NCBI RefSeq assembly: GCF_036365525.1
Contig: NC_090404.1
Coordinates: 9,362,001-9,426,000 of the forward strand
Source: Heterodontus francisci
Lineage: Eukaryota
Direction of reading: 5' to 3'
Length of the DNA: 64,000 nucleotides
Every line of letters begins with the position of its first letter. The stretch's first letter is position 1. Shown here piece by piece: positions 1,780 to 56,212 of the stretch. The position numbers and the translations under genes are program-made. Below the pieces are notes generated by a model that saw only the letters and a list, made by a program, of their open reading frames with translations, searched no databases and was not told where the DNA came from.

Positions 1780-2377
1780 TGTTAGCAGGAATGAATCTAG
1801 AAGAATCACTCGACACTCAGGTCTGCTCCAATGTCAAACAGTTTATTGAGTTACGCCAGTGGGGAGCAGGTCACTGGTCTGTCCAGATGCCTCTCCACTG
1901 AACAAAGGAAAATCATCAATACTTATACATTTTCAAACAGTTACTCAGCCCATCCCGGCTGGACATGGTCCAATCACAACGATTATAGATCATATACATT
2001 GATTATTAGAGCCAATAGAAGTGGTTACTAGGCATAGAGAGGCTGCATGACAGGCCCATAGGCAGATAGGGGATTACTCATGATGTTTCCATTCCCCCTT
2101 ATCCATTATCCTTGGTTCTCATGTACGCATAACATCTTATCTTGACCTCATTACAGGCTGGTACCTTTGTCAGCATTCCACAAGGACATCTGCTTTGTCT
2201 TTGTTTAAGTTTGGATTAGTCAGCTCTTGTGTGGAATGTGGTCAAGTTAACTAAGCCCCATGATGCCTTGCAACCTCCTCAATGTTCTTTAAGATTATAT
2301 GTATCTACTTACTCAAATAACATTTGAACTATATGTATTACTGCAGGTGCCTCTGCGCTTGGGAATACCCTACAGCA
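1780..2377 (-). repeat. 3' LTR of the ERV (U3-R-U5, ~598 bp)
   Basis: On the minus strand it starts TG two nt after the PPT and ends ...CTAACA; TATAA at 1923-1927 and AATAAA at 1842-1847; U5/R part repeated at 10859-11058. Confidence 0.92.
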
Positions 2378-2379
2378 AT

Positions 2380-2389
2380 CCCCCCTTTC
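2380..2389 (-). other. Polypurine tract (PPT)
   Basis: Minus strand GAAAGGGGGG followed by AT and then TG of U3. Confidence 0.85.
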
Positions 2390-2536
2390 GGTAGGGAGAC
2401 TAACCCCAGTCTCCTTAACTGACACCATTCAATGTTGTTGTTGTTGTTGTTATTTTCTTTAACCCTTTAAACTCGCCCGGTATTCCCTGCCTCGGACGTG
2501 CTGGCCAGTCACATGATTTCAGGAATTCCGGTCGTG

Positions 2537-4925
2537 CTACATCACATTAATGTGATCCAAATGATTTAGACGCATTGTCTCCCTTGCCTTTGCTCTAATT
2601 TTTATCCTCCTTCGCCGCACATATCGCCTGCATGGTCGGCAGGCCAGTATGCCCCACGTTACAGCCAGTATCAGCTGTACCCCAACTAGCACATGAGAAA
2701 TTATCCGAATCCAGGGGTGGATGTTCACATTCATTCCCCAATCCCAAATCTTCTTCCACCAGCTCTGGTTCTGCAGTTCTGTGTCCGTATCTTTCTCTAG
2801 CTTTTTGATTTTTGTCTGCAGTTGGTGGTAGAGTTTTACGGATTGGCCCACCCTGAGCCTTAATTCCCTTAGTACATCGGCCAGGTGTGGGATGGGGACT
2901 GGTTCTGGGTCCTCGTAATCCTGTAGGTGGTCATGGAGGTAATCAGTGACGTTGATGGTCTCGGTACCTCTACGTCGAACCTGGATAATTCGGGCTTGCC
3001 CTACACTGACGGGTCGTAAGGGCATAAAGCAAAAGTTAGGAAACGGGATAGGGCATTGTAGATTATTGTAGTGGTAGGAACTGTCTGTAGTGGAGACTCA
3101 ATATTTCCCTTTACCACCGTATCCTGTTCTTGCGAAATGCATGATTTCTACGACACAACCGTCTGTCTGATTGAACCCACATTCATCCAATTCTCCCTGT
3201 CCCACTGGGTGTGGACATACTGCTTGCATCCTGGAAGGGAAATTCCATATAGTGTATTGTTCCTGAGTATGGCAGAGGTTTCAGTTAAATAGTAACAGAG
3301 GGGGGTGCTACCCTGTATGACCCCAATATTTTCCAATTGGTAGTGGGGAAATGGCCCTGAGTCCCATGTTACTGTGGGGATCATCAGAACTACCCCCACT
3401 CTTTGCCCAATTCACAGTCTGGGATGACTGGATATACTCTGGTGAGTCCTTTCAGTGTACAATTTTTTTTGAGAGATACAGCACTGAAACAGGCCCTTCG
3501 GCCCACCGAGTCTGTGCCGACCAAGAACCACCCATTTATACTAACCTTACAGTAATCCCATATTCCCTGCCGCCTACCTACACTAGGGGCAATTTACAAT
3601 GGCCAATTTACCTATCACCTGCAAGTCTTTGGCGGTGGGAGGAAACCGGAGCACCCGGCGAAAACCCACACGGTCACAGGGAGAACTTGCAAACTCCGCA
3701 CAGGCAGTTCCCGGAATTGAACCCGGGTCACTGGAGCTGTGAGGCTGCGGTGCTAACCACTGTGCCGCCCCTTTTCTCTCTGCTAATCGAGCTAAATGTG
3801 GGCTGTCTATCCAATCGGGCACCTCCCCCCTTTGGATCTGATCGAGATTGTGTCATATCTGTCCCATAAGCGTGGCAGAGTTGGCCCTGCCTTAGCTTTC
3901 CGGCATCTTCCTTTTCTCTATCTATGAGGTGATTGATGGTCTTGGCATGGGCTTCTAATATCGTAATTCCATCTAATTGTATTCCCATGCCCTCCTCTCC
4001 TAGATTGGCCTGATCTGCCTGATTTTCCTCGGCTCTGTCTAAGAGTTCCTTCATTACTCCTTTAAGTCGTTCTACCTTCTCATTTAGGCCTTGTATGTCC
4101 AGTGAGTTTATGACGGAAGTACCAGTATTGACTCCGGTAGCAACATCGTTAACTACCCCCCTCTTTGTTCTATAAAGCTGATCCTGGCCTCGAAATCTAG
4201 TGGCACCCATGGCATCGGCAGCCTGCTGCATTACAACCTTACTGAATACACTGTACATATTTCTTGCCTGTTCTGTACAATATCCCGGCATTTGTATTCC
4301 GGAGATATTGATCAGAACAGGCACAATTTCGTGTTTAACATTATCATATAATATTTCACCTTCGTTAAAGAGTGCAATTCCATTCTCTGGTCCTTTAGTC
4401 ACTGTAGGGCATGGCAATGTCTCGGGTTGGGTGGTGGTTATTACGGGGCGTGGTGTCGGAGGGGGAGGAAAGCATACATACAAAGATAACGCTGCGGCTC
4501 CCACCTCCTCATAATACCCACATAATCCCACCCCCTTTCTATAGGCAATCGTGGGCTGAGGTCCGGTGGGTGGGGCGCATAATATTCCGAACGCACACCT
4601 ATCAGGTTTCTTTACTTCCTTTCGCAGGATACAGCTGACTCTTGCTGCATCAGTAGAACATTGTATGCACACTTTATCTTCCCCGGAGCGAACCTGTAGC
4701 CATGCATTAAAATAGGTTCTACCTTTACTCCAGTCTCTGGTTGCTGGGGTACATACACCGTCCGTGAAATTATACAAAGCCCCATAGTTCATGTAGTCAT
4801 GTTCCTCTTGTGTTTGTTGCAGCTCCAACGGTGCGTCAGCATTCTCTCGTGCTTCAGTTAATTTCAGAGTTCCTAGTATCACCAGCCCCCCAGAGCTGAA
4901 AGATCCATCGCTTTGGATTCTTAAT
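2537..4925 (-). pseudogene. env: ERV env (F-protein-like class I fusion glycoprotein), frameshifted and SINE-interrupted
   Basis: ORF pieces 3728-4882, 3148-3399 and 2537-3025; furin site RTKR (4160-4171), then fusion-peptide-like GVVNDVATGV and a heptad repeat; C-terminal TM helix (WIRIISHVLVGVQLILAVTWGILAC) and basic tail. Confidence 0.88.
3462..3770 (-). mobile_element. tRNA-derived V-SINE (HE1-like) inserted in env
   Basis: tRNA-like head (ggcggcacagtggttagcaccgcagcctcacagctccag), V-SINE-type core and CR1-like tail; same family as 52179-52510. Confidence 0.85.
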
Positions 4926-5245
4926 CTGGGGGTTTAAACAGAATGACCTGGTCGTCACCAGGTGTTAGTTCTAAGTCTACTCGTTTTCTCATCTGTATGG
5001 ATCGGAAAACATCTATGGCTAATGGTTAAATTCTAGAACTGCACCATCTCTATTTCGTCCAGTTCGGGTCTGTATTGTTGGATTTGTATTAGTGCGCGTT
5101 GTGCCCGGGCCCGTGCGGTGGCCCATTCGAATATCGTCCAGATTCCTATTAATATCACCCGAACATTCCATCCTCTAATGTATTCCACCACGCCTGGTAT
5201 CGCTCAGCATACCAAGCAGTCTCCATGATGGGCACTACCTCGAGT

Positions 5246-8200
5246 TCAGCCATCGTCCCTTTGATTATATCTTTTCAGTTGGGACCAGTGTTTCCACCGG
5301 TCCCTTCCTTTCATATCGACACATACACAAGTATCACTAGTCATGATAATATCGTACGGTCCGGTCCATTTCGGGGCGAATCCCGCCTGTTCGGGGGTGA
5401 CCCGTACCAAAACTCTTTCCCCTGCTTGGGGTGTGGGTTGGTTAATTTTAGCCCTGTTCTGTAACTCTAAGTCCCGTATACTTTGCTGATCCCTTACTTC
5501 CCGTCGTAATTCCTTTAAATGTGAGTCCAAGTGTGTTATGTACTGCCTGATTCGGTCCCGTACGGGTCCCATATCCTCCCCGCCCACTATGATGTTTTCA
5601 GGAAGTTGCATAGCCCTTCCTGTCATGAGTTCGAAGGGGGGTGGGGGGGGGGGGGGTCAAGCCGGGTTGTTCGGTTTGGCATGGCTCTGAGTCTCATTAG
5701 TATACAGGGTAAGACATCTACCCACCCCTTCCCGGTCTCGGAGATGGCCTTCGCTATAGCTGTTTTTAAAGTGTGGTTCATTCGTTCTGCCATTCCTGAA
5801 CTCTGTGGGTGGTAGGGGATATGGAAGCGCTGTCGGATTCCCAATAACCCACAGGCTTGCTTCATGACCTTTCCTGTAAAGTGGGTGCCCTGATCTGAAT
5901 CGATCTGAAGGTGCACCCCCCCCAGGGCGGTATTATGTCGAAAGCAAGAATTCGTCCTACGGTGGAGGCCTCGCCAACCCGAGTAGGGAATGCTTCAACC
6001 CACCGAGTAAATTGATCAATGATTACCAGACAATACCTTTTCCCCCTACTGCTGGCTAAAGGTCCTGTAAAATCAATTTGCAAGTTCTCCCATGGGCCCT
6101 TAGGTCGGGTTTGATGCCCCATTTTTACCTTTATGTGTCTTCCCGGGTTATGTTGTGCGCATATTATACAGCGTTGGCAATACTTCACTACGTCTCTCCC
6201 CATACTGACCCACCATCAGTCTTTAGTCAAGCGGTTTAGCATTCCATCACGCCCGGTAAGGTCTGGTTCATGATATAATTTGAGTAATTCGATCTGTATG
6301 GAAGATGGGGCGACCACTCGCAATTCTTTCCGCCACACCCCATCTCTCCCAATGACTGCCCCTTGACGTTCCCATCGGGATTGCTCCTCTGAGTCCGCCT
6401 CTTCCTGTACTTTTCTAATATTTAATTCTCCCGATCCTAACACGGCTACTTGAATAACCTGTGGCGCAGCCACTTCTGCGGCATTCTGGGCTGCCTGGTC
6501 CGCCAACATGTTCCCCTGTTGTTCTTTACTTACGACCTTCTGGTGTGCTTTAATTGTTATTACGGCTGCGGCGGCTGGGCGCTTAGCTGCTTCCACTAAT
6601 TCTCGAACCACGTTCTCGTGTTTAATGTGACCCCCTCCCGATGTTACACATCCTCGTCTACTCCATGCGGTGTACTATAATCGTGTACTACCCCAAATGC
6701 GTATCTAATGTCGGTAAAAACATTCACCTGCGCGATTTCCTTCTGCTAACTTCAAGGCTTCTGTTAGAGCCACTAATTCAGCGATTTGGGCAGATATTGT
6801 TCCTTCCAGCCCCCCCTTGTGAGAGAACTGTGCCCCTTTGGTCTACCACGGCCCACCCCGTATGAAACTGCCCATTTATATATCGTCGAGATCCGTCAAC
6901 GTAGAGGGTCACATCGGGATCAGTGAGGGGTTCGTCTTCGATTTCTCCCTCTACCTCTTGATCTATTTCTACCCGGCACTGGTGAGGCTCCCCCTCGGCT
7001 ATCATCCCCTCGGCCGGGTTGAGTCCTGTGTCTCTAATGATTTGTATTGATTGATCTTTAGGTAACAGTACGGCCTCCCATGTAGCCCATCGAGCATCGG
7101 ACACTGTTTTTAATCTCCCGGTATTTAACAATTCTACTATAGTATGTTTGGTGTGTATGATTAGTTGTCCTGACATGGTGATGGGCTCGCTAACCTTTGC
7201 GGCCCATGCTGCGCAGTCAAGGGCAGCTACACATCGGCGGAGTCCCCTAACTATCGGGGATTCTTGTGTAGAGTAGTATGCCACTGGTCTCATCTTCCCT
7301 CCCCTTTCCTGGGTTACTACAGCGCTATAGAATCCCCCATCGAGGTCGTAATATATGTGAAATGGCTTAGTCATGTCTGGCAGCCTGAGGGCTGGGGCTG
7401 CCAGCAGTTCTGCCTTTAATTTACTGTATGCTTCCTCCTGCTCTTCTCCCCATTCCACTTGCTCCGTCCCTGGTTTTCACCCTTTTATTAGGCGTTGGAT
7501 AGGCTCTGCCAGGGTAGCGAATTGGGAAATGAAATTTCTATAGTAATTAAATAGGCCCATCACTCGTCGCACCCCCCGCACTGTTAAAGGTCGGGGCATG
7601 TTAGAAATTGCTGTCTTGCGGTCGGCAGGGAGGGTTTTTGCCCCCTGACTTACGTCATGTCCTAAGTATCATACCCGGGTCTGGCCAATCTGTGCCTTTT
7701 TTGGGTTAATTTTAAATCCCGACTCCTCCAGCGCCCTCAACACCGTTGTCAGGGCCCCCAAGTGTTCCCGATTAGTCGTCGAGGCTGTCAGGAAATCATC
7801 TACGTGCTGTAAGATCGTACTATTGTATGGGTTTAGGTCACACTTTTCCAGAGTCTTACTCATGACCCGGTGAAAAATATTTGGGATATTGTGAAATCCC
7901 TGTGGAAGTCTGGTCCAGGTATATTGTTTGCCCTTTGATGTAAAGGCAAATTTTTCCTGGGACTCAGGGTCCAATGGGATTGACCAGAATCCGTGTGCGA
8001 TATCCAGGATTGTAAAAAATCTGATGTTCCGGATTTAAACCATTGAAGATAGTGGCTGGACTGGATAGGATAGGATGCTCTTTCGGCGTTACCTTATTCA
8101 GGGCAGTATAATCTATCGTTAACCGGTAACTCCCATCGGGTTTTTTAACCGGCCACGTGGGGGAGTTTGTAATCGATACTGTTGGCCGGAGAATACCCTG

Positions 8201-8820
8201 CTCTACCAGAACCATTATTATACCCTCGGTCGCCTGCGTAGCTTCCAGTCTAACCGGGTATTGTTTGTGAGGTAGATGTGTTGGTCCAGCAATCCGTTCA
8301 GGTGTAGTTTTGATAGGTCCACAGTCTTGCTTACTCCTAGCCCAGACTCCTGGTGCGGCCTGACATATCGTTCCCAATATCCCATCTTTAACCCAATCCC
8401 TGGCCAAGGTTTTAATGCTGCCTATCGTTGCTGCATTTCTCACTGGGACTCATTTCCCGGTCATCTTGTCTTTATACCCCCTTTCTAGTGGCCCAAGATA
8501 TTTGTCTTTACTGTGCATCTACTATCGTGCCCAGTTCTCTGAGTCGGTCCATACCCATACCCTTCTGGGTTCGGACAGACCCAAAACTGCACTGGTAACA
8601 TTATACCTTCAACCTCTAATATCTACGTTTCACTTTTGTGGGCTGTGATTTTACTGCCCCCTACTCCCTGTATCGTAATACAATGTCGGGTAGTGGGCAA
8701 GGCGGGGTTGGTGGAGGATACTGAGGCCCCCGTATCTATTAACATTTCACATCGCCGGCCCCCTATCGATGCCTCAATCCACATACGAGGATCAGTTCCT
8801 TGCCCGGGGGCCGCTGCCAC
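5246..8820 (-). pseudogene. pol: ERV pro-pol (protease, RT, tether, RNase H, integrase), multiple frameshifts
   Basis: LIDTGASVS (protease); WPVKKPDGSYRLTIDY, LPQGFHN, HVDD (RT); LYVDGS, AELVAL, GNMLADQAA (RNase H); LQIDFTGP, SDQGTHF, PQSSGMAERMN, PKWTGPY (integrase). Confidence 0.95.
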
Positions 8821-10344
8821 TCATTGAGGCAAGGTTGGTTGTCGGGTCAACTGCTGAATGATGTCCAACAACTGTTTATTGCTCATTTTAGTGGCATCCG
8901 TGATCGTCTCGTTAGTTACGTTCCCCGTCCCTTGTCCCTGCCAGGGCCCCTTTCCTTCCTGTCCGCCCCCCTTTGCCCAGCAGTCCTTTATGTCATGCCC
9001 TATTCTGTTACAATTTGTGCATCCTTTACGGCCATTGCGCTTCGGGGCCCTACACTCAGCGCGGCGATGTCCCGGTTTGTTACAGTTAAAGCAGGTCATT
9101 TTTTTACAGAGGCTGTTTTGTACGCCTCAGTCAGAAAGGTAGTTATTTTAAATTTCTGCTGATTATCTACTGCAGTAGCCCAATTTTCCAAATCGTCATA
9201 GTTATAGTAATTTACCAAACCCTTTTTTAGTATTATAAAAGCAAAATACTGCGGATGCTGGAAATCTGAAATAAAAACAAGAAATGCTGGAACCACTCAG
9301 CAGGTCTGGCAGCAGGTCTGGCAGTTTTTAGTATTGCCTGATGAGCGGGGCTTAACCCATCTTTATATAACTGGAGAAAAGCCGGATTTTATTGATCGGC
9401 ATTTGCCATGCCACTGTGTGCTCGGAAAGCTTCGAACTTCCTGGTTCCATATTCCTGCGCCCCCTCCCCTTTGTTCTGTGTCACTCCTCCTATCGAATTC
9501 CAATTTACGGGGATCTGACCTAAGGTGGCTGTTACCGTCTGCCTTAAAAGCAATCAGGTCTAATTCCTGCTGCTGTGGGTCGGCGGCCAGATCCGCACAC
9601 CAGGTACCATCCCGGTGGGCAGCCTGGAGCCGTCCCCATTAGTTCTCAGGCATCTTGGTCTGAACTAACCCTGCAACATCCCGATTATGGAGGTTGTGAC
9701 AGATTTGCATCTCTTTGATTTTCTGCCAGAATATTGCATTGCTATGACGAGGTTTTAAAAGTGACAATCTGTCCAGCAATTTCATGGTGTCTCCGGGGGA
9801 CAAGATCATATATGTCATTCTTAGTTGTGCTGGTCGGGCTGGTTGTCCCGGGTGTCCACCCCTTCCCACTACCCCCCTTTGTGCTGGCGCTCCAGGGACA
9901 TACTCCACCTTTACAGGAGCTGTTTTTACTGCATTCGCCGGAGCGTAAGGGGCCGGGGTCTCGTCTCCTTCCTGATTATAATTATGCGCCTCTTCTTCTA
10001 GGGATCCCCAATCAATATCGTCCTCACTGGGCGGCGCGCTAGGGTGGCCCGTTAGTGCTAGCAGGACCGTTTGTCCGGACATAACGGTTACCTGCTGCTT
10101 TTTGTCCTTTATATACTGATTCCCTCGCTCTGTTAATTTTACATGGGCACGAATAACCAAAACCAGAGCTTTATCATCCTTCTCTTTCTTTTCCTTCTTC
10201 CACCACTCCCGCTGGTCAGCCAGCAGGTCGTGGGGTTTCCAACCTGAGTCAATCATCTTTTCTATTAACTTTTTGTGTTTCTCTGCCAGGTGGTAGGTAA
10301 GGGAACCCTCCGGTCCCCACTCGAGCTCTATCTTCACTGGCCAT
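8821..10344 (-). pseudogene. gag: ERV gag with two CCHC zinc knuckles
   Basis: ORF pieces 9639-10337, 9096-9296 and 8821-9099; CFNCNKPGHRRAEC and CTNCNRIGHDIKDC; PSAPP-like motif; ATG at 10344 is one frameshift from the long ORF. Confidence 0.9.
9235..9324. mobile_element. Short Penelope-derived fragment inserted in gag
   Basis: aaatactgcggatgctggaaatctgaaataaaaacaagaaatgctgg repeat flanked by TSD tttttagtatt (9224-9234 and 9325-9335). Confidence 0.75.
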
Positions 10345-10838
10345 ACTTGGGTAGGATTAGAACCGTTAGAATCTACTCTCAGAGGTCCGCTTTTAACCTA
10401 GCGCAACTTGTAGTAGACCGTCTCCTGGCTAACTGTCGGGTCACAAGTCTGTCCGTATTTCATACAACAAGCTTATGATATATATACACATACATATATT
10501 GCAAACCCTTCTCGACAGTGCCTAAGTCTCTTAACGAACTACCTACCACCGTTTGACCACTGTTCAGATCCTGTTCACAAACGTGGCATTCCTCGGTCGT
10601 GAAACACCACCCGGCCCCGGGATAAGCTTTAGATACTCACCCAGTATTCCTGATGGCATCAACGACCGCCGAATCCTGTTCTCAAGTTCGGGATCAGGCT
10701 CCAGCCAACTCCCCCTTGGTCCCTTTGTTCCCTTCGCCCACTGAAATCCTGGCCGTCACGTGGGACTCAGTCCTCTTAATTCCGGCTCAGGCTGGGTGAT
10801 TGGGATATCACGGTCGCAGAAGAGTTGACTTACACCTG

Positions 10839-10856
10839 ATCCTGCCGACTACGCCA
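10839..10856 (-). other. Primer-binding site complementary to tRNA-Ser
   Basis: TGGCGTAGTCGGCAGGAT is the 18-nt complement of the vertebrate tRNA-Ser(AGA/TGA) 3' end (...ATCCTGCCGACTACGCCA), 2 nt after the U5 terminal CA. Confidence 0.93.
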
Positions 10857-10858
10857 AT

Positions 10859-11058
10859 TGTTAGCGGGAATGAATCTAGAAGAATTACTCGACACTCAGG
10901 TCTGCTCCAATGTGAAACAGTTTATTTAGTTCCGCCAAAGGGGAGAGGCATCTGGACAGCCCAGTGACCTGCTCCCCGCTGGCATAACTAAACAAACTGT
11001 TTGACATTGGAGCAGACCCGAGTGTCGAGTGATTCTTCTCGATTCATTCCCGCTAACA
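10859..11058. repeat. Aberrant 5' terminus of the ERV: fold-back of partial R-U5 plus inverted full R-U5 (no U3)
   Basis: 10859-10945 matches 1780-1866 directly; 10942-11058 matches the reverse complement of 1780-1896; TSD abuts the outer CA. Confidence 0.92.
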
Positions 11059-11574
11059 CCGAGTCTCAGGGCTGCTCCCTGGGGATCATCTTTTAACCAT
11101 TGAGTTCAGAGAGTCTCTGAGCTGATCCACTGAGAGAATCCGTACTCACCTGCACAGGAACATTGATCAGATCTCCTTTTCAATATGTATAATTGTCTTA
11201 TTTTAACCTGCTGCTTTTTTTTCTCTGTTACCTGTCTGAATTCTTTTCAATCTCGCTTTCTATTGATTTCCCGCGACTGTTCATGGCAAAGGGGAGCCTG
11301 GGGGTGTGGAGGGAATAGGGGAGATGGGGAGAAAGCAGCAAAAGGAAAAGCCGAACAGCTGGGGATAAATTGAGCTAAAAGAAAATCCGGTTAAAGCACA
11401 GAAAAAGAAACTGCTGGTTAAAATTGTGCAAGAGTGCAATGAAAGAAAAATCTGAGCAATTCACCAGTGGAAGTGAGTGAGACCCCCAGGGTTGATCATG
11501 CCGGGGCATGTACTCAATGTTTAGAAACTGAGCAATGTACCTGTGCAGCTGAGTGAAGCTCCCCAAGGCTGTAT

Positions 11575-22701: not shown

Positions 22702-23333
22702 ATACGGCAGCGAGGCCTGGACAACGTATGCCAGCCAAGAGCGACGTCTCAATTCATTCCATCTTCGCTGCCTTCGGAGAATACTTGGCATCAGGTGGCA
22801 GGACTATATCTCCAACACAGAAGTCCTTGAAGCGGCCAACATCCCCAGCTTATACACACTACTGAGTCAGCGGCGCTTGAGATGGCTTGGCCATGTGAGC
22901 CGCATGGAAGATGGCAGGATCCCCAAAGACACATTGTACAGCGAGCTCGCCACTGGTATCAGACCCACCGGCCGTCCATGTCTCCGTTATAAAGACGTCT
23001 GCAAACGCGACATGAAATCGTGTGACATTGATCACAAGTCGTGGGAGTCAGTTGCCAGCATTCGCCAGAGCTGGCGGGCAGCCATAAAGACAGGGCTAAA
23101 TTGTGGCGAGTCGAAGAGACTTAGTAGTTGGCAGGAAAAAAGACAGAGGCGCAAGGGGAGAGCCAACTGTGCAACAGCCCCAACAAACAAATTTCTCTGC
23201 AGCACCTGTGGAAGAGCCTGTCACTCCAGAATTGGCCTTTATAGCCACTCCAGGCGCTGCTTCACAAACCACTGACCACCTCCAGGCGCGTATCCATTGT
23301 CTCTCGAGATAAGGAGGCCCAAAAGAAAGAAAG
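22702..23333 (+). mobile_element. RTE (BovB-like) LINE 3' fragment
   Basis: Near-identical to the 3' end of the RTE at 53794-56212; TSD atacgagtgt (22692-22701 and 23334-23343). Confidence 0.9.
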
Positions 23334-25350: not shown

Positions 25351-26599
25351 TCTTTGCAGTCGCTGTGTTACACAGAAACAAAGCGGCTGGATCTTCTGTT
25401 TAAGGCACATTATGACTGAAAACAATTAAACTTCAAACCCTCACCAGAGGAAAATTCAGAGCACTGCAAAACTGAGTGAGCTGTCCAATTAGCCCCATTC
25501 CCCATAAAGCTGCGAATTAGCTTCCTGTCAGGTATTTATCCAATTCCCTTTGAAAGTTACTGTTCAAACTGCTTCCAGAGCCCTTTCAGACTGTGCCTTC
25601 CAGATCACAACGAATCGCTGTGTTAAAACAAAATTCTCCTCATCTCCCCCTCTGGTTCTGTTGCCAAATATCTTAAATCTCTGGTTGCAAACCCTCCTGC
25701 TATTGGAAACAGTTTCTCCCTATCTACTCTATCAAAAATCCTCCCTAATTTTGTACACTTATATTAAGTCTCCCCTTAACCTTCCCTGCTCAAAGGGGGG
25801 CATCCCCTGATTCTCTTTATGTTTTATATCAATAATCCCTCATTATTTTGAACAGCTCTATTCCATAGGAACACACATTTGGAGAAAGATACGAGAGAGA
25901 GAAAAACTGAAACTTTTAAAAAGGCAGAAACACAAGACGGTGAGAGATAAAAGCTGAGAAATAGAGGAAACAAGGAACACACAGAGAGAATGATATAAAC
26001 TGAAAGGGAGCAAACTACCAGCTCCCGGCTTCAAAGAGCAGAGGGAGCTCAGTGACTGATCCACAGACATTGCCAGTTATGTCCTGGAGTGGAGACTCGA
26101 AACAGAAACAGCAGGTTCATTTGTAAATGTCACCACAATGTGATCTGTGTGACTCTGCACCGACTCTGTGGACAGATATAGGCCGCCTTGGCAGATGTTT
26201 CCACCAGATTGTGGCCCCTGGATTTATTTTCTGCTCAGAAGTGAGATGTGCGGTTTGGAAGCGGCAGCAGAGAAACAGGAAGTTGTGTTGCCTGAGAATG
26301 GAATAGCAGCTGTCAGTTTCATGTTATCATCATGAACAGTCCTCCTGCATGTGAGGGTGGATTCACTCTGACAGCATCAAGAACCAGCACACAGAATACT
26401 TCTGGTCTCAACATTGCCTTCACCTCCATTCTCATTTTTAAAAATAAAACAGATGGGTTTATCTGGGTTTTAATGTATTCACTGAAGGGGAAGATGGGCT
26501 GAGGGTTATCAATGGGTGAAATGAGGGGAAATTAACAAAATTAATTTTCCCCAAAGAGAATAATTAGAAAATAGGAGATTTTACATAAGTCAGGGAATG

Positions 26600-29500
26600 T
26601 CTGAGAGAGAGAGAGCGGAGAGAGTTTCAGTGAGTTAGATGCAGCCTGAAAAAGAGGAGAGAGGTTCAGTGAGTTCAGTGGTGTCTGAGAGAGGAGAGAT
26701 GGTCAGTGAGTTCAGTGGTATCTGAGAGAGGAGAGAGGTTCAGTGAGTTCAGTGGTGTCTGAGAGAGGAGAGAGGTTCAGTGAGTTCAGTGGTGTCTGAG
26801 AGAGGAGAGATGGTCAGTGAGTTCAGTGGTATCTGAGAGAGGAGAGAGGTTCAGTGAGTTCAGTGGTGTCTGAGAGAGGAGAGAGGTTCAGTGAATTTGG
26901 TGGTGACTGAGAGAGGAGAGAGGTTCAGTGAATTTGGTGGTGACTGAGAGAGGAGAGAGGTTCAGTGAGTTCAGTGGTGGCTGAGAGAGGAGAGAGGTTC
27001 AGTGAGTTCAGTGGTGTCTGAGAGAGGAGAGAGGTTCAGTGAGTTTGGTGGTGTCTGAGAGAGGAGAGAGGTTCAGTGAGTTTGGTGGTGACTGAGAGAG
27101 GAGAGAGGTTCAGTGAGTTCAGTGGTGTCTGAGAGAGGAGAGAGGTTCAGTGAGTTTGGTGGTGTCTGAGAGAGGAGAGAGGTTCACTGAGTTTGGTGGT
27201 GACTGAGAGAGGAGAGAGGTTCAGTGAATTTGGTGGTGACTGAGAGAGGAGAGAGGTTCAGTGAATTTGGTGGTGACTGAGAGAGGAGAGAGGTTCAGTG
27301 AGTTCAGTGGTGGCTGAGAGAGGAGAGAGGAGAGAGGTTCAGTGAATTTGGTGGTGACTGAGAGAGGAGAGAGGTTCAGTGAGTTCAGTGGTGGCTGAGA
27401 GAGGAGAGAGGAGAGAGGTTCAGTGAGTTCAGTGGTGTCTGAGAGAGGAGAGAGGTTCAGTGAGTTTGGTGCTGTCTGAGAGAGGAGAGAGGTTCAGTGA
27501 GTTTGGCAGTGTCTGAGAGAGCAGAGAGGTTCAATGAGTTTGGTGGTGTCTGAGAGAGAGGTTCAGTGAGCTCAGTGGTGTCTGAGAGAGGAGAGAGGTT
27601 CAGTGAGTTTGGGGGTGCCTGAGAGAGAGGTTCAATGAGTTCAGTGGTGTCTGAGAGAGGAGAGAGGTTCAGTGAGTTTGGGGGTGCCTGAGAGAGAGGT
27701 TCAGCGAGTTCAGTGGTGTCTGAGAGAGGTGAGAGGTTCACTGAGTTCAGTGGTGTCTGAGAGAGGAGAGAGGTTCAGTGAGTTCAGTGGTGTCTGAGGG
27801 AGGAGAGAGATTCAGTGAGTTTGGTGGTGACTGAGAGAGGAGAGAGGTTCAGTGAGTTCAGTGGTGTCTGAGAGAGGAGAGAGGTTCAGTGAGTTCAGTG
27901 GTGTCTGAGAGAGGAGAGAGGTTCAGTGAGTTCAGTGGTGTCTGAGAGAGGAGAGAGGTTCAGTGAGTTCGGTGGTGTCTGAGAGAGGAGAGAGGTTCAG
28001 TGAGTTCAGTGGTGTCTGAGAGAGGAGAGAGGTTCAGTGAGTTTGGTGGTGTCTGAGAGAGGAGAGAGGTTCAGTGAGTTCAGTGGTGTTTGAGAGAGGA
28101 GAGAGGTTCAGTGAGTTCGGTGGTGTTTGAGAGAGGAGAGAGGTTCAGTGAGTTCAGTGGTGTCTGAGAGAGGAGAGCGGTTCAGTGAGTTTGGCTGTGT
28201 CTGAGAGAGGAGAGAGGTTCAGTGAGTTTGGTGGTGTCTGAGAGAGGAGAGAGGTTCAGTGAGTTCAGTGGTGTCTGAGAGAGGAGAGAGATTCAGTGAG
28301 TTCAGTGGTGTCTGAGAGAGGAGAGAGGTTCAGTGAGTTCGGTTGTGTCTGAGAGAGGAGAGAGGTTCAGTGAGTTTGGTGGTGTCTGAGAGAGGAGAGA
28401 GGTTCAGTGAGTTCAGTGGTGTCTGAGAGAGGAGAGAGGTTCAGTGAGTTCAGTGGTGTCTGAGAGAGAGGAGAGAGGTTCAGTGAGTTCAGTGGTGTCT
28501 GAGAGAGGAGAGAGGTTCAGTGAGTTCAGTGGTGTCTGAGAGAGAGGAGAGAGGTTCAGTGAGTTTGGTGGTGTCTGAGAGAGAGGAGAGAGGTTCAGTG
28601 AGTTCAGTGGTGTCTGAGAGAGAGGAGAGAGGTTCAGTGAGTTTGGTGGTGTCTGAGAGAGAGGAGGTTCAGTGGTGTCTGAGAGAGGAGAGAGGTTCAG
28701 TGAGTTCAGTGGTGTCTGAGAGAGAGGAGAGAGGTTCAGTGAGTTTGGTGGTGTCTGAGAGAGAGGAGAGAGGTTCAGTGAGTTCAGTGGTGTCTGAGAG
28801 AGAGGTTAAGTGGTGTCTGAGAGAGGAGAGAGGTTCAGTAAGTTTGGTGGTGTCTGAGAGAGAGGAGAGAGGTTCAGTGGTGTCTGAGAGAGGAGAGAGG
28901 TTCAGTGAGTTTGGTAGTGTCTGAGAGAGAGGAGAGAGGTTCAGTGAGTTCAGTGGTGTCTGAGAGAGAGGTTCAGTGGTGTCTGAGAGAGGAGAGAGGT
29001 TCAGTGAGTTCAGTGGTGTCTGAGAGAGAGGAGAGAGGTTCAGTGAGTTTGGTGGTGTCTGAGAGAGAGGAGAGAGGTTCAGTGAGTTCAGTGGTGTCTG
29101 AGAGAGAGGTTAAGTGGTGTCTGAGAGAGGAGAGAGGTTCAGTAAGTTTGGTGGTGTCTGAGAGAGAGGAGAGAGGTTCAGTGGTGTCTGAGAGAGGAGA
29201 GAGGTTCAGTGAGTTTGGTGGTGTCTGAGAGAGAGGAGAGAGGTTCAGTGAGTTCAGTGGTGTCTGAGAGAGAGGTTCAGTGGTGTCTGAGAGAGGAGAG
29301 AGGTTCAGTGAGTTCAGTGGCGCCTGAGAGAGAGGTTCAGTGAGTTTGGTGGTGTCTGAGAGAGAGGAGAGAGGTTCAGTGAGTTTGGTGGTGTCTGAGA
29401 GAGAGGAGAGAGGTTCAGTGAGTTCAGTGGTGTCTGAGAGAGAGGAGAGAGGTTCAGTGAGTTTGGTGGTGTCTGAGAGAGAGGAGAGAGGTTCAGTGAG

Positions 29501-30360: not shown

Positions 30361-32021
30361 TGTTTGGTATCATATTTTGTTTCACAATGCCCTTGTAAAG
30401 CACCTCAGGACGTTTTATTATGCTGATGGTGCTATCTAAAGGCAGGTTGTTGTTGTTTCAGTGATTGGACTCTGCTGTTAATCACATCCAAGACTGAACC
30501 ATGTTCATTCTGAAAGTGGAGTTTGTTTCTACTGATGTCAATAACCCCAACAACTGGGCTGGAGTTTAAATTTTATATTTACCACAATCAGACTTGTGTC
30601 AAACACACACTTGTTCAATCCTTGATTTTTCCAGGAGAGGAGACTAATTGATGTCCTGTTCCCTACTGTTCCATTTTTGGGCCTTTTCTTCTTTCTAACT
30701 CTAGATTATTTCAGTTCTCAAACCTTCAGTTACTCTCATGGACAAGATCCAGCTTCCCATCCCTTCCAGAGTACCTCTCCAACCTTGTGATCCAGGGAAG
30801 GTGTCAGTAACACACCCGGGATCACTAAACAGAAAACCCAGTCTATTGATCACTTTCAGCAACTGGGCTTAGTGTGTGTCCCACAGCATCTCTCTCACCT
30901 TCGATGTGTGAGTAGATCATCACACCTGCAAACCTGGTTTAAATTTAAACTTAAATCTTCTGAGCAAATGTATTTAACAACAGACGAACACCTCAAATAA
31001 CTGGTAAAATATCAGTGAGTTGCTGTGATCTGGAACGCACAGCCTGAAAGGACGGTGCAAGCAGATTCAATAATAACTTTCCAAAGGTAATTGGATAAAT
31101 ATTTAAAAGGAAGAGTTTGCAGGGCTCTGGGGAAAGGCCAGGGGGGTGGGACTAAATGGCAACTCTTTCAAAGATGCTGCAGGCCCTACACTGCTGCTCC
31201 ATATTGACAGGAGACAGTCTGATGTCCAACTCCCCGAGAATAAAGATCCAAACTCTCTAATAAATCAGTTTTATTTCAAACCATTTGCCCCACTTCCCTG
31301 TCCCCGGGGTACAAACACTGTGAGCTGCTGTGCCCTCTAATTATGGACCTGAGACCGCGCTCCCTGTTTAAAGTGCTGTGGCACCGCCTCCCTGCGGTTC
31401 AATCCTCTGCTGCCCCCACACTCACTTCCCTTCTTTCTGGAGATCTAACTGTTGCACCAGCAGTTAACAGGTTCGTGTGAAATCCTCCATCTGCTCTTTT
31501 CACGCAGACTTCAGCCAATTTATTTAAACCAGGTTTTTATTAAATGAATTAACGGCTGCCTAAAAGTGATCATCTCAGGTCTATCACACTAACATGTTCA
31601 AATGTTGTAGAATCATTACGAATCATTTTCAGACTAGAAACTTAAACCTGCCGTTTCACTTTCAGTCAGTAACAGATCACAGTTTTATACCAATCTGCCG
31701 TCAGTGAAGAGAGATGAGAAAGACCAAAGTGCTGTATGTCCCTCTTAGTGTGACCCAGAAGGACTGTGTCCAGGATGAAGTTCTGTTCCTGCCGTATGAT
31801 CCTACCCCCAGATTGTCCTTTCTGAGCTCCAGCCAGGTGATGGTAAACACTCGGGTAGGAAAGTTAAAAACCTACAACACTGTATTTAAAACAAAGCTGA
31901 TTTATTTCACATTCATCCAGAATATTAAACCTCAGCAACAAATCATGACTGTCAAAATGAATATGGTTCAGTTTTGGATGTGATTAACAGCAGTAATAAC
32001 AGCAGAATCCAACCCTTAAAA

Positions 32022-33467
32022 TCAGTTGTGAACTCGCTGGTGTGTTAGCAGGTGGGATGACTGAGTGAATCTTTTCCCACACACAAAGCAGGTGAATGGC
32101 CTCTCCCCAGTGTGAATTCGCTGGTGACTCAGCAGGTTGGATAAATGAGTGAATCCCTTCCCACACATGGAGCAGGTGAACGGCCTCTCCCCAGTGTGAA
32201 TTCGCTGGTGTGTCAGCAGGTTGGATGAATGGATGAATCCCTTCCCACAGACGGAGCAGATGAACGGCCTCTCCCCAGTATGAATTCGCTGGTGATTCAG
32301 CAGGTTGGATGAACGGGTGAATCCCTTCCCACAGATAGAGCAGGTGAACGGCCTCTCCTGAGTGTGAACCAGCTGGTGTGTCAGAAGATTGGATGAACGG
32401 GTGAATCCCTTCCCACACACAGAGCACATGAATGATCTATCCCCCGTGTGCACTTGCTGGTGTTTCAGAAGGCTGGATGAATTCATGAATCCCTTCCCAC
32501 AGTCAGAGCAGGTGAATGGCCTCTCCCCAGTGTGAACTCGCTGGTGAGTCAGTAGGGCAGATGAACGGGTGAATCCCTTCGCACACACAGAGCATGTGAA
32601 AGGTCTCTCCCCAGTGTGCAAATATTGGTGCGTTAGCAAATCCTCTTTTCTTTTAAAGCTCTTCTCACAGTCAGAACAATTAAAAAGTTTGGTGTTAGAG
32701 TGAACAAGTTGATGTGTCAGAAGATGGGATGATTGAGTGAATCCCTTCCCACACACGGAGCAGGTAAATGGTCTCTCCCCAGTGTGAATACGTTGGTGTA
32801 TCAGCAGATCCTTTTTGCATTTAAAACTCTTCTCACAGTCAGAACATGTAAACGGTCTCTTATCAGTGTGAACAAGTTGGTGTGTCACAATGTGGGATGA
32901 CCGAGTAAATCCCTTCCCACACTCAGAGCAGGTGAATGGCCTCTCCCCACTGTGAATTTTCTGGTGTGTCAGAAGGTTATAAGAATGGGTGAATCCCTTC
33001 CCACATACAGAGCAGGTGAACGGCTTCTCCCCGGTGTGACTGCGTTGATGAATTTCCAGCTGGGATGGGTAACTGAAACCCTTCCCGCAATCCCTGCATT
33101 TCCACGGTTTCTCCATGGTGCAGGTGTCTACCTGTGCCACTCCAGGTTGGATATCAGTTGAAGCCTCATCCACACACACGTATGGAGTTTCTCCCTGATG
33201 TGAATGGTACAGTGGTTTTACTGGCTTGTTAAAGCTCATTCCACAGTCAGTGCACTGGAACACTCTCACTTGGGTGTGTGTGTCTCGGTGCTTTTCCAGT
33301 CACACTGATGTTTGAAATTTTTCCCACAGACAGAACAGACAAACATTTCTCCTTCCACATTCAAAGGCCAATGATATTCAGGTCCTGATGAATCGAGGGA
33401 CTGTGTCAAATCTTGATGTGATGTTTGGTTTGAGTTTCCTGTGCACAAATTCTCCCCTTCTAATACC
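32022..33467 (-). CDS. C2H2 zinc-finger protein (13 intact tandem fingers from MEKPWKC at 33116; upstream part frameshifted)
   Basis: Repeated CxxC...HxxxH with TGERPF linkers; acceptor ccttttacag at 33468-33477; no KRAB-like domain seen. Confidence 0.88.
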
Positions 33468-42545: not shown

Positions 42546-42652
42546 GTCAGGATTCATTTCTGGGTGTGATTAACAGCAGCAAGAGCAGAATCCAATCCCT
42601 GCAGTCACTCACTAACTTACTGGTATGTCACCAGGTTGGTTGACTGAGTGAG

Positions 42653-44046
42653 TCACTTCGCACAAATGGAGGTGAACGGCCTCTCCCCAGTGTGAACTCG
42701 CTGGTGTATCAGAAGCTCGGTTGAATCAGTGAATTCCTGACCACACTCACAGCAGGTGAATGGTCTCTCCCCAGCATGAATACGTTGGTGTTTCAGCAGA
42801 TCCTTTTTGCTTTTAAATCTCTTCTCACAGTCAGAACATTTTAAAGGTCTCTCATCAGAGTGAACCTGCTGGTGTGTCAGCAGGGTGGATGAATGAGTGA
42901 ATCCCTTCCCACACTCACAGCAGGTGAACGGCCTCTCCCCAGTGTGAGTGCGTTGGTGGTTGAGTAAATTTTTTGTGCTTTTGAAGCTCTTCCCACAGTC
43001 AGAACATTGAAAGGGTCTCTCATCAGAGTGAACCCGCTGGTGTGTCCGGAGATTTGATAAAACATTAAACGCCTTCCCACATTCAAGGCAGATGAAAGGC
43101 CTCTCTCCAGTGTGAACTTGCTGATGTGTATAGAGGCTGGACGAATGAGTGAATCCCTTCCCACACACAGAGCAGGTAAACGGCCTCTCCCCAGTGTGAG
43201 TGCGTTGATGGTTCAGTAAATCCTTTTTACTTTTAAAGCTCTTCTCACAAACAGAACATTGAAAAGGTCTGTTATCAGAGTGAACAAGTTGGTGTCTCAG
43301 GAGGTGGGATGACTGTGTGAATCCCTTCCCGCACACGGAGCAGATAAACGGCCTCTCCCCAGTGTGAGTGCGTTGGTGTGCCAGTAGATCCTTTGTGCTT
43401 TTAAAGCTCTTCTCACAATCAGAACATTTGAACGGTCTCTTATCAGAGTGAACCCGCTTGTGTTTCTGGAGAGTTGATAAAGCATTAAATCCCTTCCCGC
43501 ATTCAAGGCAGATGAATGGCCTCTCTCCAGTATGAATTCTCTGGTGTGTATACAGACTGGACGACTGAGTGAATTCCTTCCCACACATGGAGCAGGTGAA
43601 TGGCCTCTCTCCAGTGTGACTGCGTCGATGAGTTTCCAGTTCAGATGGGTAATTGAATCCCTTTCCACAATCCCCACATTTCCATGGTTTCTCCGTGGTG
43701 CAGGTGTCCTTGTCTCTCTCCAGGTTGGATGATCAGTTGAAGCCTTGTCCACACACAGTACAAGTGTACGGTTTCTCCCCACTGTGAATGGTGCAGTGTT
43801 TTGTCAGGCTGTGTAAATGGTTAAAGCTCAGTCAGTACTCTGGAACACTCTCACTCGGGTGTGTATCTCGGTGCTTTTTCAGTCACACTGATGTTTGAAA
43901 TATTTTCCCGCAGACAGAACAGACAAACATTTCTCCTTCCACATTCAAAGGCTCCTGATATTCAGGTCCTGATAAACTGAGTGACTGTCCAATATTGATG
44001 TGATGTTTGGTTTGAGCTTCCTGTCTGAAAATTCTCTCCTAATCGC
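42653..44046 (-). CDS. C2H2 zinc-finger gene or pseudogene (~12 fingers), paralog of 32022-33467
   Basis: Tandem C2H2 fingers with TGERPF linkers; the MEKPWKC start is ACG here, with an in-frame TGA upstream; acceptor at 44047-44048. Confidence 0.8.
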
Positions 44047-52178: not shown

Positions 52179-52510
52179 GGGCGGCACAGCGGCGCAGTGG
52201 TTAGCACCGCAGCCTCACAGCTCCAGCGACCCGGGTTCAATTCCGGGTACTGCCTGTGTGGAGTTTGCAAGTTCTCCCTGTGTCTGCGTGGGTTTCCTCC
52301 GGGTGCTCCGGTTTCCTCCCACATGCCAAAGACTTGCAGGTTGATAGGTAAATTGGCCATTAGAAATTGCCCCTAGTATAGGTAGGTGGTAGGGAAAATA
52401 TAGGGACAGGTGGGGATGTGGTAGGAATATGGGATTAGTATAAATGGTGGTTGATGGTTGGCACAGACTCGGTGGGCCGAAGGGCCTGTTTCAGTGCTGT
52501 ATCTCTAAAC
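52179..52510 (+). mobile_element. tRNA-derived V-SINE (HE1-like)
   Basis: A/B-box head, V-domain core (gtggagtttgcaagttctccctgtgtctgcgtgggtttcctccgggtgctccggtttcctcccaca) and CR1-type tail. Confidence 0.88.
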
Positions 52511-53793: not shown

Positions 53794-56212
53794 CTTTTCT
53801 TTTGGGCCTCCTTATCTCGAGAGACAATGGATACGCGCCTGGAGGTGGTCAGTGGTTTGTGAAGCAGCGCCTGGAGTGGCTATAAAGGCCAATTCTGGAG
53901 TGACAGGCTCTTCCACAGGTGCTGCAGAGAAATTTGTTTGTTGGGGCTGTTGCACAGTTGGCTCTCCCCTTGCGCCTCTGTCTTTTTTCCTGCCAACTAC
54001 TAAGTCTCTTCGACTCGCCACAATTTAGCCCTGTCTTTATGGCTGCCCGCCAGCTCTGGCGAATGCTGGCAACTGACTCCCACGACTTGTGATCAATGTC
54101 ACACGATTTCATGTCGCGTTTGCAGACGTCTTTATAACGGAGACATGGACGGCCGGTGGGTCTGATACCAGTGGCGAGCTCGCTGTACAATGTGTCTTTG
54201 GGGATCCTGCCATCTTCCATGCGGCTCACATGGCCAAGCCATCTCAAGCGCCGCTGACTCAGTAGTGTGTATAAGCTGGGGGTGTTGGCCGCTTCAAGGA
54301 CTTCTGTGTTGGAGATATAGTCCTGCCACCTGATGCCAAGTATTCTCCGAAGGCAGCGAAGATGGAATGAATTGAGACGTCGCTCTTGGCTGGCATACGT
54401 TGTCCAGGCCTCGCTGCCGTAGAGCAAGGTACTGAGGACACAGGCCTGATACACTCGGACTTTTGTGTTCCGTGTCAGTGCGCCATTTTCCCACACTCTC
54501 TTGGCCAGTCTGGACATAGCAGTGGAAGCCTTACCCATGCGCTTGTTGATTTCTGCATCTAGAGACAGGTTACTGGTGATAGTTGAGCCTAGGTAGGTGA
54601 ACTCTTGAACCACTTCCAGAGCGTGGTCGCCAATATTGATGGATGGAGCATTTCTGACATCCTGCCCCATGATGTTCGTTTTCTTGAGGCTGATGGTTAG
54701 GCCAAATTCATTGCAGGCAGACGCAAACCTGTCGATGAGACTCTGCAGGCATTCTTCAGTGTGAGATGTTAAAGCAGCATCGTCAGCAAAGAGGAGTTCT
54801 CTGATGAGGACTTTCCGTACTTTGGACTTCGCTCTTAGACGGGCAAGGTTGAACAACCTGCCCCCTGATCTTGTGTGGAGGAAAATTCCTTCTTCAGAGG
54901 ATTTGAACGCATGTGAAAGCAGCAGGGAGAAGAAAATCCCAAAAAGTGTGGGTGCGAGAACACAGCCCTGTTTCACACCACTCAGGATAGGAAAGGGCTC
55001 TGATGAGGAGCCACCATGTTGAATTGTGCCTTTCATATTGTCATGGAATGAGGTGATGATACTTAGTAGCTTTGGTGGACATCCGATCTTTTCTAGTAGT
55101 CTGAAGAGACCACGTCTGCTGACGAGGTCAAAGGCTTTGGTGAGATCAATGAAAGCAATGTAGAGGGGCATCTGTTGTTCACGGCATTTCTCCTGTATCT
55201 GACGAAGGGAGAACAGCATGTCAATAGTCGATCTCTCTGCACGAAAGCCACACTGTGCCTCAGGGTAGACGCGCTCGGCCAGCTTCTGGAGCCTGTTCAG
55301 AGCGACTCGAGCAAAGACTTTCCCCACTATGCTGAGCAGGGAGATTCCACGGTAGTTGTTGCAGTCACCGCGGTCACCTTTGTTTTTATAGAGGGTGATG
55401 ATGTTGGCATCGCGCATGTCCTGGGGTACTGCTCCCTCGTCCCAGCACAGGCATAGCAGTTCATGTAGTGCTGAGAGTATAGCAGGCTTGGCACTCTTGA
55501 TTATTTCAGGGGTAATGCTGTCCTTCCCAGGGGCTTTTCCACTGGCTAGGGAATCAATGGCATCACTGAGTTCCGATTTGGTTGGCTGTATGTCCAGCTC
55601 ATCCATGACTGGTAGAGGCTGGGCTGCATTGAGGGCAGTCTCAGTGACAGCATTCTCCCTGGAGTACAGTTCTAGGTAGTGCTCAACCCAGCGGTCCATC
55701 TGTTTGCGTTGGTCAGTGATTATGTCCCCCGATTTAGATTTGAGGGGGGTGATCTTCTTGATGGTTGGCCCAAGAGCTCTCTTCATGCCATCATACATTC
55801 CTCTGATGTTTCCGGTGTCTGAGGCCAGCTGAATATGACTGCATAGGTGTTGCCAGTAGTCGTTTGCGCAATGCCTAGCTGTTCTTTGTGCAGTACTTCT
55901 GGCTGCTTTAAGTGCTGCGGATGTTAAATCGCTGGGGGCTTTCTTGTAGTTCAAAAGTGCAATGCGCTTAGCGGCTATGACAGGTTCCAGCTCTTCATTA
56001 TGAGATTGAAACCAGTCTGCATTTCTCTTCGCACTTTTGCCGTAGGTGGTCAAAGCTGACTCATAGATGGCGTCTCTGATGTGGGCCCACCTGGTCTCAG
56101 CATCCCCTGTGGGAGTGTTTTGAAGGGCTGTTACAAGTGAATTTAGAAATTTTTGTAACAGCTGTGGGTGAGAAATTCTGCTCGTGTTGATGCGCGGGTG
56201 GCCCTTCTTCTG
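53794..56212 (-). mobile_element. Young 5'-truncated RTE (BovB-like) LINE
   Basis: TSD catcaactattgt (53781-53793 and 56213-56225); uninterrupted RT ORF; short ttttc/aaag-type tail. Confidence 0.95.

Follow-up and report, generated by a model that had tools for sequence, protein, structure and literature searches.

The Env of lokiretroviruses (Loki) resembles F, whereas Wang and Han (PMC7947760) detected no overall resemblance to other retroviral Env that reached significance; they gave four scenarios for the origin of Env and could not decide between them. A 64,000-nucleotide stretch of the shark Heterodontus francisci (contig NC_090404.1, positions 9,362,001 to 9,426,000, forward strand; hereafter the window) contains an env gene that an earlier reading made from the letters alone, the sequence-only reading, had described as F-like and assigned to a loki-like or otherwise deep-branching endogenous retrovirus (ERV). 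The locus raises the question of whether lokiretroviruses extend to sharks or whether a retrovirus of another kind carried an Env of this type.

Provirus structure and the decayed env gene

The provirus occupied positions 1780..11058 (about 9.3 kb) of the minus strand, on which all of the features described below are also located. It had TG...CA termini, its blocks aligned to four sister copies, and it was bracketed by a 5-bp target-site duplication, CCGAG, at 1775-1779 and 11059-11063. The 3' LTR of about 600 bp (1780..2377) was delimited by alignment to both LTRs of copy L036. The primer-binding site (10839..10856) was complementary to the 3' end of host tRNA-Ser(AGA), an assignment based on six exact genomic matches, of which the two that were checked were both tRNA-Ser. 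The 5' end (10859..11058) was rearranged and had no full LTR, consisting of about 106 bp of the U5 end and an inverted 120-bp U5 copy, so that the provirus has inverted termini of about 120 bp. Because the clean target duplication brackets the provirus, the 5' end was integrated in rearranged form. Copy L035 (953-1144), on another contig with unrelated flanks, had the identical 5' structure. Copies L036 and L037, unlike these two, had ordinary LTR pairs that were 98.9% (805-1429 and 9179-9803) and 98.2% (163-732 and 9431-10000) identical, respectively, indicating that some copies of the family are comparatively young.

The gag gene (8824..10397), delineated from open frames and Pfam, was broken, carried two CCHC zinc knuckles outside of which nothing was matched, and contained an inserted 90-bp repeat (9234-9323). 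The pol gene (5246..8820), in which Pfam recognized PR, RT, tether, RNase H and IN with its C-terminal domain, was disrupted by stops and frame changes. Comparison of the sister copies showed that gag and pol share one frame and are separated by an in-frame TGA (8821..8823) in all five copies examined (the window, L033, L035, L036 and L037), which is likely to be a UGA read-through site.

Elsewhere in the window were a 37-bp minisatellite array (26500-28100), two arrays with an 84-bp period (31984-33123 and 42648-43787) that, from the period, look like exons of C2H2 zinc-finger genes, and a perfectly complementary pair of 626-nt segments 30 kb apart (22703-23328 and 53796-54421), which represents either a repeat of very recent origin or an artefact of the assembly.

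The env gene spanned 2537-4933, between pol and the 3' LTR, and was read mainly from two open frames. The first frame (4933-3851) encoded a Cys-rich N-terminal beta domain (about 4471..4783), a candidate receptor-binding module, followed by a Pro/Thr hinge (4417..4468), an F2-like segment (4172..4416) with a Cys-Pro start, two strands, a Cys and a helix, as defined by profile alignment and the model of a relative, and the furin site RTKR (4160..4171). Beyond the cleavage site, the region 3771..4159 comprised a Gly/Val/Thr-rich fusion peptide (4159-4097), the long helix of the first heptad repeat (HRA) and a conserved Cys at 3874. The fusion peptide is weakly hydrophobic, P0155, an intact relative, having a Kyte-Doolittle mean of 0.39 across 20 aa. 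The beta-rich Cys domain (3098..3461), located by tblastn against the open frame of copy L005, was broken by frame changes and a stop. The second frame (3097-2537) encoded the end of this domain, the second heptad repeat (HRB, about 2884-2768), a TM helix (about 2716-2645) and a basic cytoplasmic tail. Between the two halves of the gene was a SINE (about 3462..3770) with a poly-A tail at its low end, which we take to be of the HE1/V-SINE type. The insert is a repeat, with other copies in the window at 52189-52322 and 52446-52509, and the sister copies align on either side of it. The env features named in the sequence-only reading were all recovered where it had placed them, and its estimate of about 390 aa for the ectodomain after removal of the SINE compares with approximately 400 aa from furin site to TM in P0155.

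Three points had escaped that reading: the further breaks of the window copy (frame changes near 3851-3870, 3393-3399 and 3220-3223, as well as two stops, one of them below 3851-3870), the lack of a visible Met in its signal-peptide region, and the weak hydrophobicity of the fusion peptide. Compared with a protein annotated in Heterodontus francisci, the env pieces of the window copy showed 81-86% identity. Probing the 6.0-Gb genome of this species with 190 aa of env yielded 3362 candidates, and all of the 150 that were scored matched env (61-100% identity), so that there are at least 150 copies. The longest open env frame among the scored copies was 643 aa (L005), and none of the 150 had a full-length open env. 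The gag-pol-env order was identical in four sister proviruses, and env adjoined both IN and the 3' LTR in all four of those fetched. Relative to the L005 frame, dN/dS was 0.12-0.26 for the env core and 0.23-0.36 for the N-terminal domain in nine of twelve comparisons, the other three having been dropped (locus in the other orientation, fewer than 20 codons aligned). These values indicate purifying selection on env during the spread of the family. The window copy cannot make the protein and is a fossil of a family whose env still worked when it spread.

On two contigs of the assembly G000, C40 for RT and C29 for env, dozens of related matches were packed into a few megabases, a pattern suggestive of tandem or segmental amplification.

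Homology and predicted fold of the envelope protein

Profile A4, built from 53 sequences, was compared over its whole length with group profiles by HH comparison. The two Loki Envs were matched with P of 98.6 and 98.3 (E of 1e-15 and 2.5e-14, 329-396 columns). The next groups were epsilon (P 94, with a WDSV-like first row; the match to the WDSV-like Env of L079 had P 94.7 over 192 columns), foamy (90), SnRV (86-88) and paramyxovirus F (82), while beta (11), baculovirus (8), gamma (4), alpha (1.5) and delta (1) scored low and column-shuffled targets gave P of 0.5 or less. L079 was taken as WDSV by motif match, and the remaining reference groups were labelled by motif and length. The two Loki references are contigs that carry the Loki RT motif, and L038 was taken as SnRV since its RT motifs are identical to those of the SnRV row, both according to the supplement of PMC7947760.

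When segments were compared separately, the Loki match persisted (P 96 for the beta-rich domain, P 90 for the fusion peptide with HRA), whereas matches to SnRV, WDSV, foamy and paramyxovirus F had P of at most 24. Since the beta-rich domain is matched by itself, the Loki match is not a coiled-coil artefact; the SnRV, WDSV and foamy matches, which fade by segment, are whole-length signals. The whole-length links of WDSV/WEHV and foamy Env were also backed by Foldseek. The weaker signals appeared only with depth: BLAST with one sequence against SnRV Env fell short of significance (E 0.11), a shallow profile, A2, gave P of 2.6 to SnRV Env, which was detected only with the deeper A4, and single paramyxovirus F sequences gave P of 8 or less against A4, a 34-sequence profile being needed for a signal. 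On the profile evidence, the Env is homologous to lokiretrovirus Env, its closest named relative. The Envs of the walleye epsilonretrovirus and SnRV (L079 and L038) also appear to contain an F-type core.

The fold was predicted from an intact relative, P0155, which is 53-57% identical to the window env pieces. The AlphaFold2 model, made with the 53-row alignment, had a mean pLDDT of 65 and a pTM of 0.39. It showed two long F2-like strands and a helix, then a helix of about 100 residues after the cleavage site and, in the C-terminal part, two beta-rich domains, HRB and TM. Of the 36 PDB rows shown by Foldseek, 34 were paramyxovirus or pneumovirus F and two were foamy Env; the best match among them was a postfusion-like hPIV3 F (E 2e-8), at the low TM-scores (0.14-0.28 by query, rmsd 15-41 Å) that characterized the matches to F. 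Against BFVD, WEHV1 Env (E 4e-11) and WDSV Env (E 4e-9) were matched (entries Q9WHI8 and A4GTG3 among them), the matches listed also included lispivirus glycoproteins, baculovirus F and paramyxovirus F, and none of the 50 rows shown was a gamma-type Env. ESM features pointed to Fusion_gly/Baculo_F. None of the 53 family members matched Pfam PF00523, whereas both Loki Envs did; Pfam found no F family in the env pieces and relatives; and a PDB sequence search with an env piece or profile returned coiled-coil noise and no F protein. The ISD and CX6CC motifs, both present in 11 of 11 gamma Envs, were absent from the two long family members, P0155 and the 643-aa L005 frame, bearing out the earlier impression that gamma-type motifs were missing; together with the gamma profile score, this sets the protein apart from an ordinary gamma-type Env. 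The Env core is thus predicted by modelling to have the F-type class I fusion fold, and profile and fold searches agree on an F-type Env with Loki Env as the best named relative.

The known systems differ in what they share with the shark protein. Loki Env has the furin site, fusion peptide, coiled coil, beta-rich Cys domain and TM in common with it, the homology extending across about 400 columns with 18-19% identity, but has 7 Cys compared with 19-20, a more hydrophobic fusion peptide, and no counterpart of the N-terminal domain of about 110 aa and its hinge. SnRV Env is homologous in its C-terminal half and has its own N-terminal region of about 480 aa with further basic sites. The WDSV/WEHV Env is about 1200 aa long. 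Paramyxovirus and pneumovirus F (PF00523) have the predicted fold and the F2-furin-F1 order at about 16% identity, but the shark Env carries its own N-terminal domain in place of a separate attachment protein. Foamy Env (PMC11468914; PDB 8rm0 and 8rm1) likewise combines an F-related fusion core with a built-in receptor-binding module, but is about 990 aa long compared with about 700 aa in the shark family.

The N-terminal Cys-rich domain is absent from both Loki Env and F, and evolved at about twice the dN/dS of the core. The slot is modular, since in relatives a V-set Ig domain occupies the same position (P0215 scoring above the Pfam cut-off and P0189 weakly). Domains of V-set or Ig-like type preceding the F core were seen in P0215, P0189 and P0173. 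The shark domain had no sequence match to the Ig domains of these relatives and no match in the Atlas, and was modelled with low confidence as five strands (pLDDT 53). DUF1349 was rejected as an assignment at 21 bits, far under the cut-off of 32. Exposure on the hinge, faster evolution, absence from Loki Env and F, and the Ig slot in relatives make this domain the best candidate for receptor attachment.

F proteins are made as a precursor that is cut, F2 remaining disulfide-linked; HRA then extends with the fusion peptide and HRB folds back. By analogy with paramyxovirus F and foamy Env, the shark precursor would trimerise and be cut by furin at RTKR, and the N-terminal part (Cys-rich domain, hinge and F2-like segment) would stay attached through a disulfide that joins the Cys of the F2-like segment to the one with which HRA ends. 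Binding of the receptor would be followed by extension of HRA, insertion of the fusion peptide and the return of HRB along HRA to give a six-helix bundle. Attachment and fusion would then be carried out by one protein, with no separate G/HN partner.

Polymerase placement and distribution of the family

In the RT and IN trees the family was represented by sister copy L033, whose natural pol frame, 1047 aa long, was 85% identical to the window over the window RT piece. The careful RT tree, with 35 rows including two Loki references, reproduced the published topology, in which Loki is sister to all others, and a quick-mode tree of 77 rows agreed. The shark family, with other shark and fish elements, fell within the non-Loki retroviruses (100/97) but in neither the foamy clade (100/100) nor the gamma/epsilon/alpha/beta/delta clade; WDSV/WEHV RT falls in the epsilon clade. 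Grouping of the family with Loki was rejected (AU p=6e-5). SnRV was the nearest named virus by RT (233 bits, next 193) and a clade with it was neither recovered nor rejected (AU p=0.147), the fork being open in the tree and SnRV the sole Huo reference. RNase H scored 77-113 bits to gamma/epsilon/SnRV versus 18-29 bits to Loki/foamy, as scores without a tree. The family has the dual RNase H (tether and RH), which is common to all retroviruses and therefore not diagnostic of Loki. In the IN tree the family was not sister to Loki (AU p=2e-7).

The virus is not a lokiretrovirus, since none of RT, RNase H and IN groups with those of Loki, and of the earlier suggestion of a loki-like or otherwise deep-branching ERV the second part holds while the first does not. 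As judged from its polymerase, the backbone is basal, SnRV-grade and non-Loki. An extension of true lokiretroviruses to sharks would fit with Loki Env being the best named Env match and with the IN core scoring highest to Loki among the named references (164 bits, next 159), but is very improbable given the two AU rejections and an RNase H that is not of the Loki type. Moreover, none of the three Chondrichthyes genomes screened in PMC7947760 was positive. The sequence-only reading had listed the known Loki hosts without sharks.

An in-frame stop lies between gag and pol in both SnRV and the shark family (TAG and TGA, respectively). SnRV IN is distant from that of the family. The family differs from foamy virus in RT, RNase H, the gag-pol read-through layout and the zinc knuckles; its Gag, with two zinc knuckles, also distinguishes it from Loki. 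ERVs related to SnRV have been reported across vertebrates (clade Huo, PMC6001957) and in a chimaera (CmiERV lineage I, PMC4422223).

Mustelus asterias, or a species near it, has intact Env relatives of 699-722 aa. When 1.84 billion proteins were searched with a profile, 61 matches were obtained; the 20 that were looked up, as proteins alone, were from sharks (10), a skate (1), coelacanth (2), frogs (4) and entries without an organism (3). P0180, from a sawshark annotation, has an env piece of the family fused to a Niban-1-like protein and is likely a gene-model artefact. The combination of an F-type, Loki-related Env with a non-Loki backbone is real and reproducible: it is widespread in cartilaginous fish, with homologues of the Env in coelacanth and frogs. 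The locus is very probably a decayed ERV with a basal non-Loki polymerase, a Loki-homologous F-type Env and a likely receptor-binding N-terminal domain.

Origin and significance of the F-type Env

Two accounts of how the Env came to be shared deserve serious consideration. In the first, which we consider a real possibility somewhat short of an even chance, the common ancestor of Loki and the other retroviruses had an F-type Env that was passed on vertically, kept by Loki, foamy virus, SnRV-grade ERVs and exogenous epsilonretroviruses, and later replaced elsewhere by gamma/beta-type Env. The F-type signal in four deep RT lineages (Loki, foamy, SnRV and WDSV/WEHV) and the homologues in sharks, skate, coelacanth and frogs are consistent with this account. 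However, the Env is closer to Loki and the RT closer to SnRV, so that the Env order departs from the RT order; Env identity is below 21%; and the epsilon ancestor has been argued to have had a gamma-type Env (PMC9967133).

In the second account, which is plausible without being probable, env, perhaps with IN, was exchanged between Loki and the basal ERV group, Loki being the recipient of a 3' IN+env block. Loki IN nested at moderate support with basal ERVs of frogs and coelacanth (93/84, or 90/92 when three more are included), unlike in the RT tree, and holding Loki out of this group was disfavoured (p=7e-4 and 0.045); these were post-hoc tests, chosen after seeing a tree that is unrooted and based on 212 columns, and the IN branches were not starred. 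Replacement of IN in Loki has already been reported (PMC7947760). Against the exchange, the IN of the shark family does not come out as sister to that of Loki, and the frog and coelacanth elements are known here from their pol. The basal frog and coelacanth ERVs among which Loki IN nests (L061 and L062) are annotated 'NYNRIN-like'.

Capture of an RNA-virus F gene, or host domestication of an env, with no working retroviral env would account for the Mononegavirales glycoproteins among the structural matches, but is hardly credible for a gene that lies between IN and the 3' LTR in every sister provirus fetched, is dispersed in at least 150 copies, is far closer to Loki Env than to paramyxovirus F, and is broken in the window.

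Parts of this picture were known. Earlier papers describe SnRV-related ERVs in a chimaera (PMC4422223), link foamy Env to F (PMC11468914), describe walleye Env as distinct from gamma-type (PMC9967133) and expect more F-like proteins in Retroviridae (PMC12583693), and a vertebrate ERV analysis has been announced for a later report (bioRxiv 2023.10.26.564294). SnRV-like ERVs in cartilaginous fish are thus already known, as are the individual parts by kind. The full-text literature searched held no account of an Env of F type or related to that of Loki in ERVs of sharks or of SnRV grade, although an earlier notice is possible. Passages of PMC10699275, PMC11521997, PMC13709493 and bioRxiv 2024.03.17.585361 contributed nothing further on this subject. 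What is new is the combination of a Loki-related Env with a non-Loki backbone, and the bridge that it forms between deep retroviral Envs.

Loki-type Env is likely more widespread among ancient retroviruses than reported. Because a non-Loki retrovirus has a Loki-homologous Env whose profile also reaches SnRV, WDSV/WEHV and foamy Env, independent acquisition of this Env by Loki alone is unlikely. It may tentatively be proposed, as a whole that is somewhat doubtful, that the F-type fusogen is the ancestral retroviral Env, that the shark family bridges Loki to the SnRV, walleye and foamy Envs, that swappable attachment domains, Cys-rich or V-set Ig, were added at its N-terminus in different lineages, and that Loki took its IN+env block from the basal group.

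The finding bears on the open question of the origin of retroviral Env. For the Env of SnRV and of fish epsilonretroviruses, to which no fold had been assigned, it suggests one, and it shows an F core with an exchangeable N-terminal candidate attachment domain. With a family that has intact natural members, the choice between an ancestral F-type Env and an exchange of env becomes testable.
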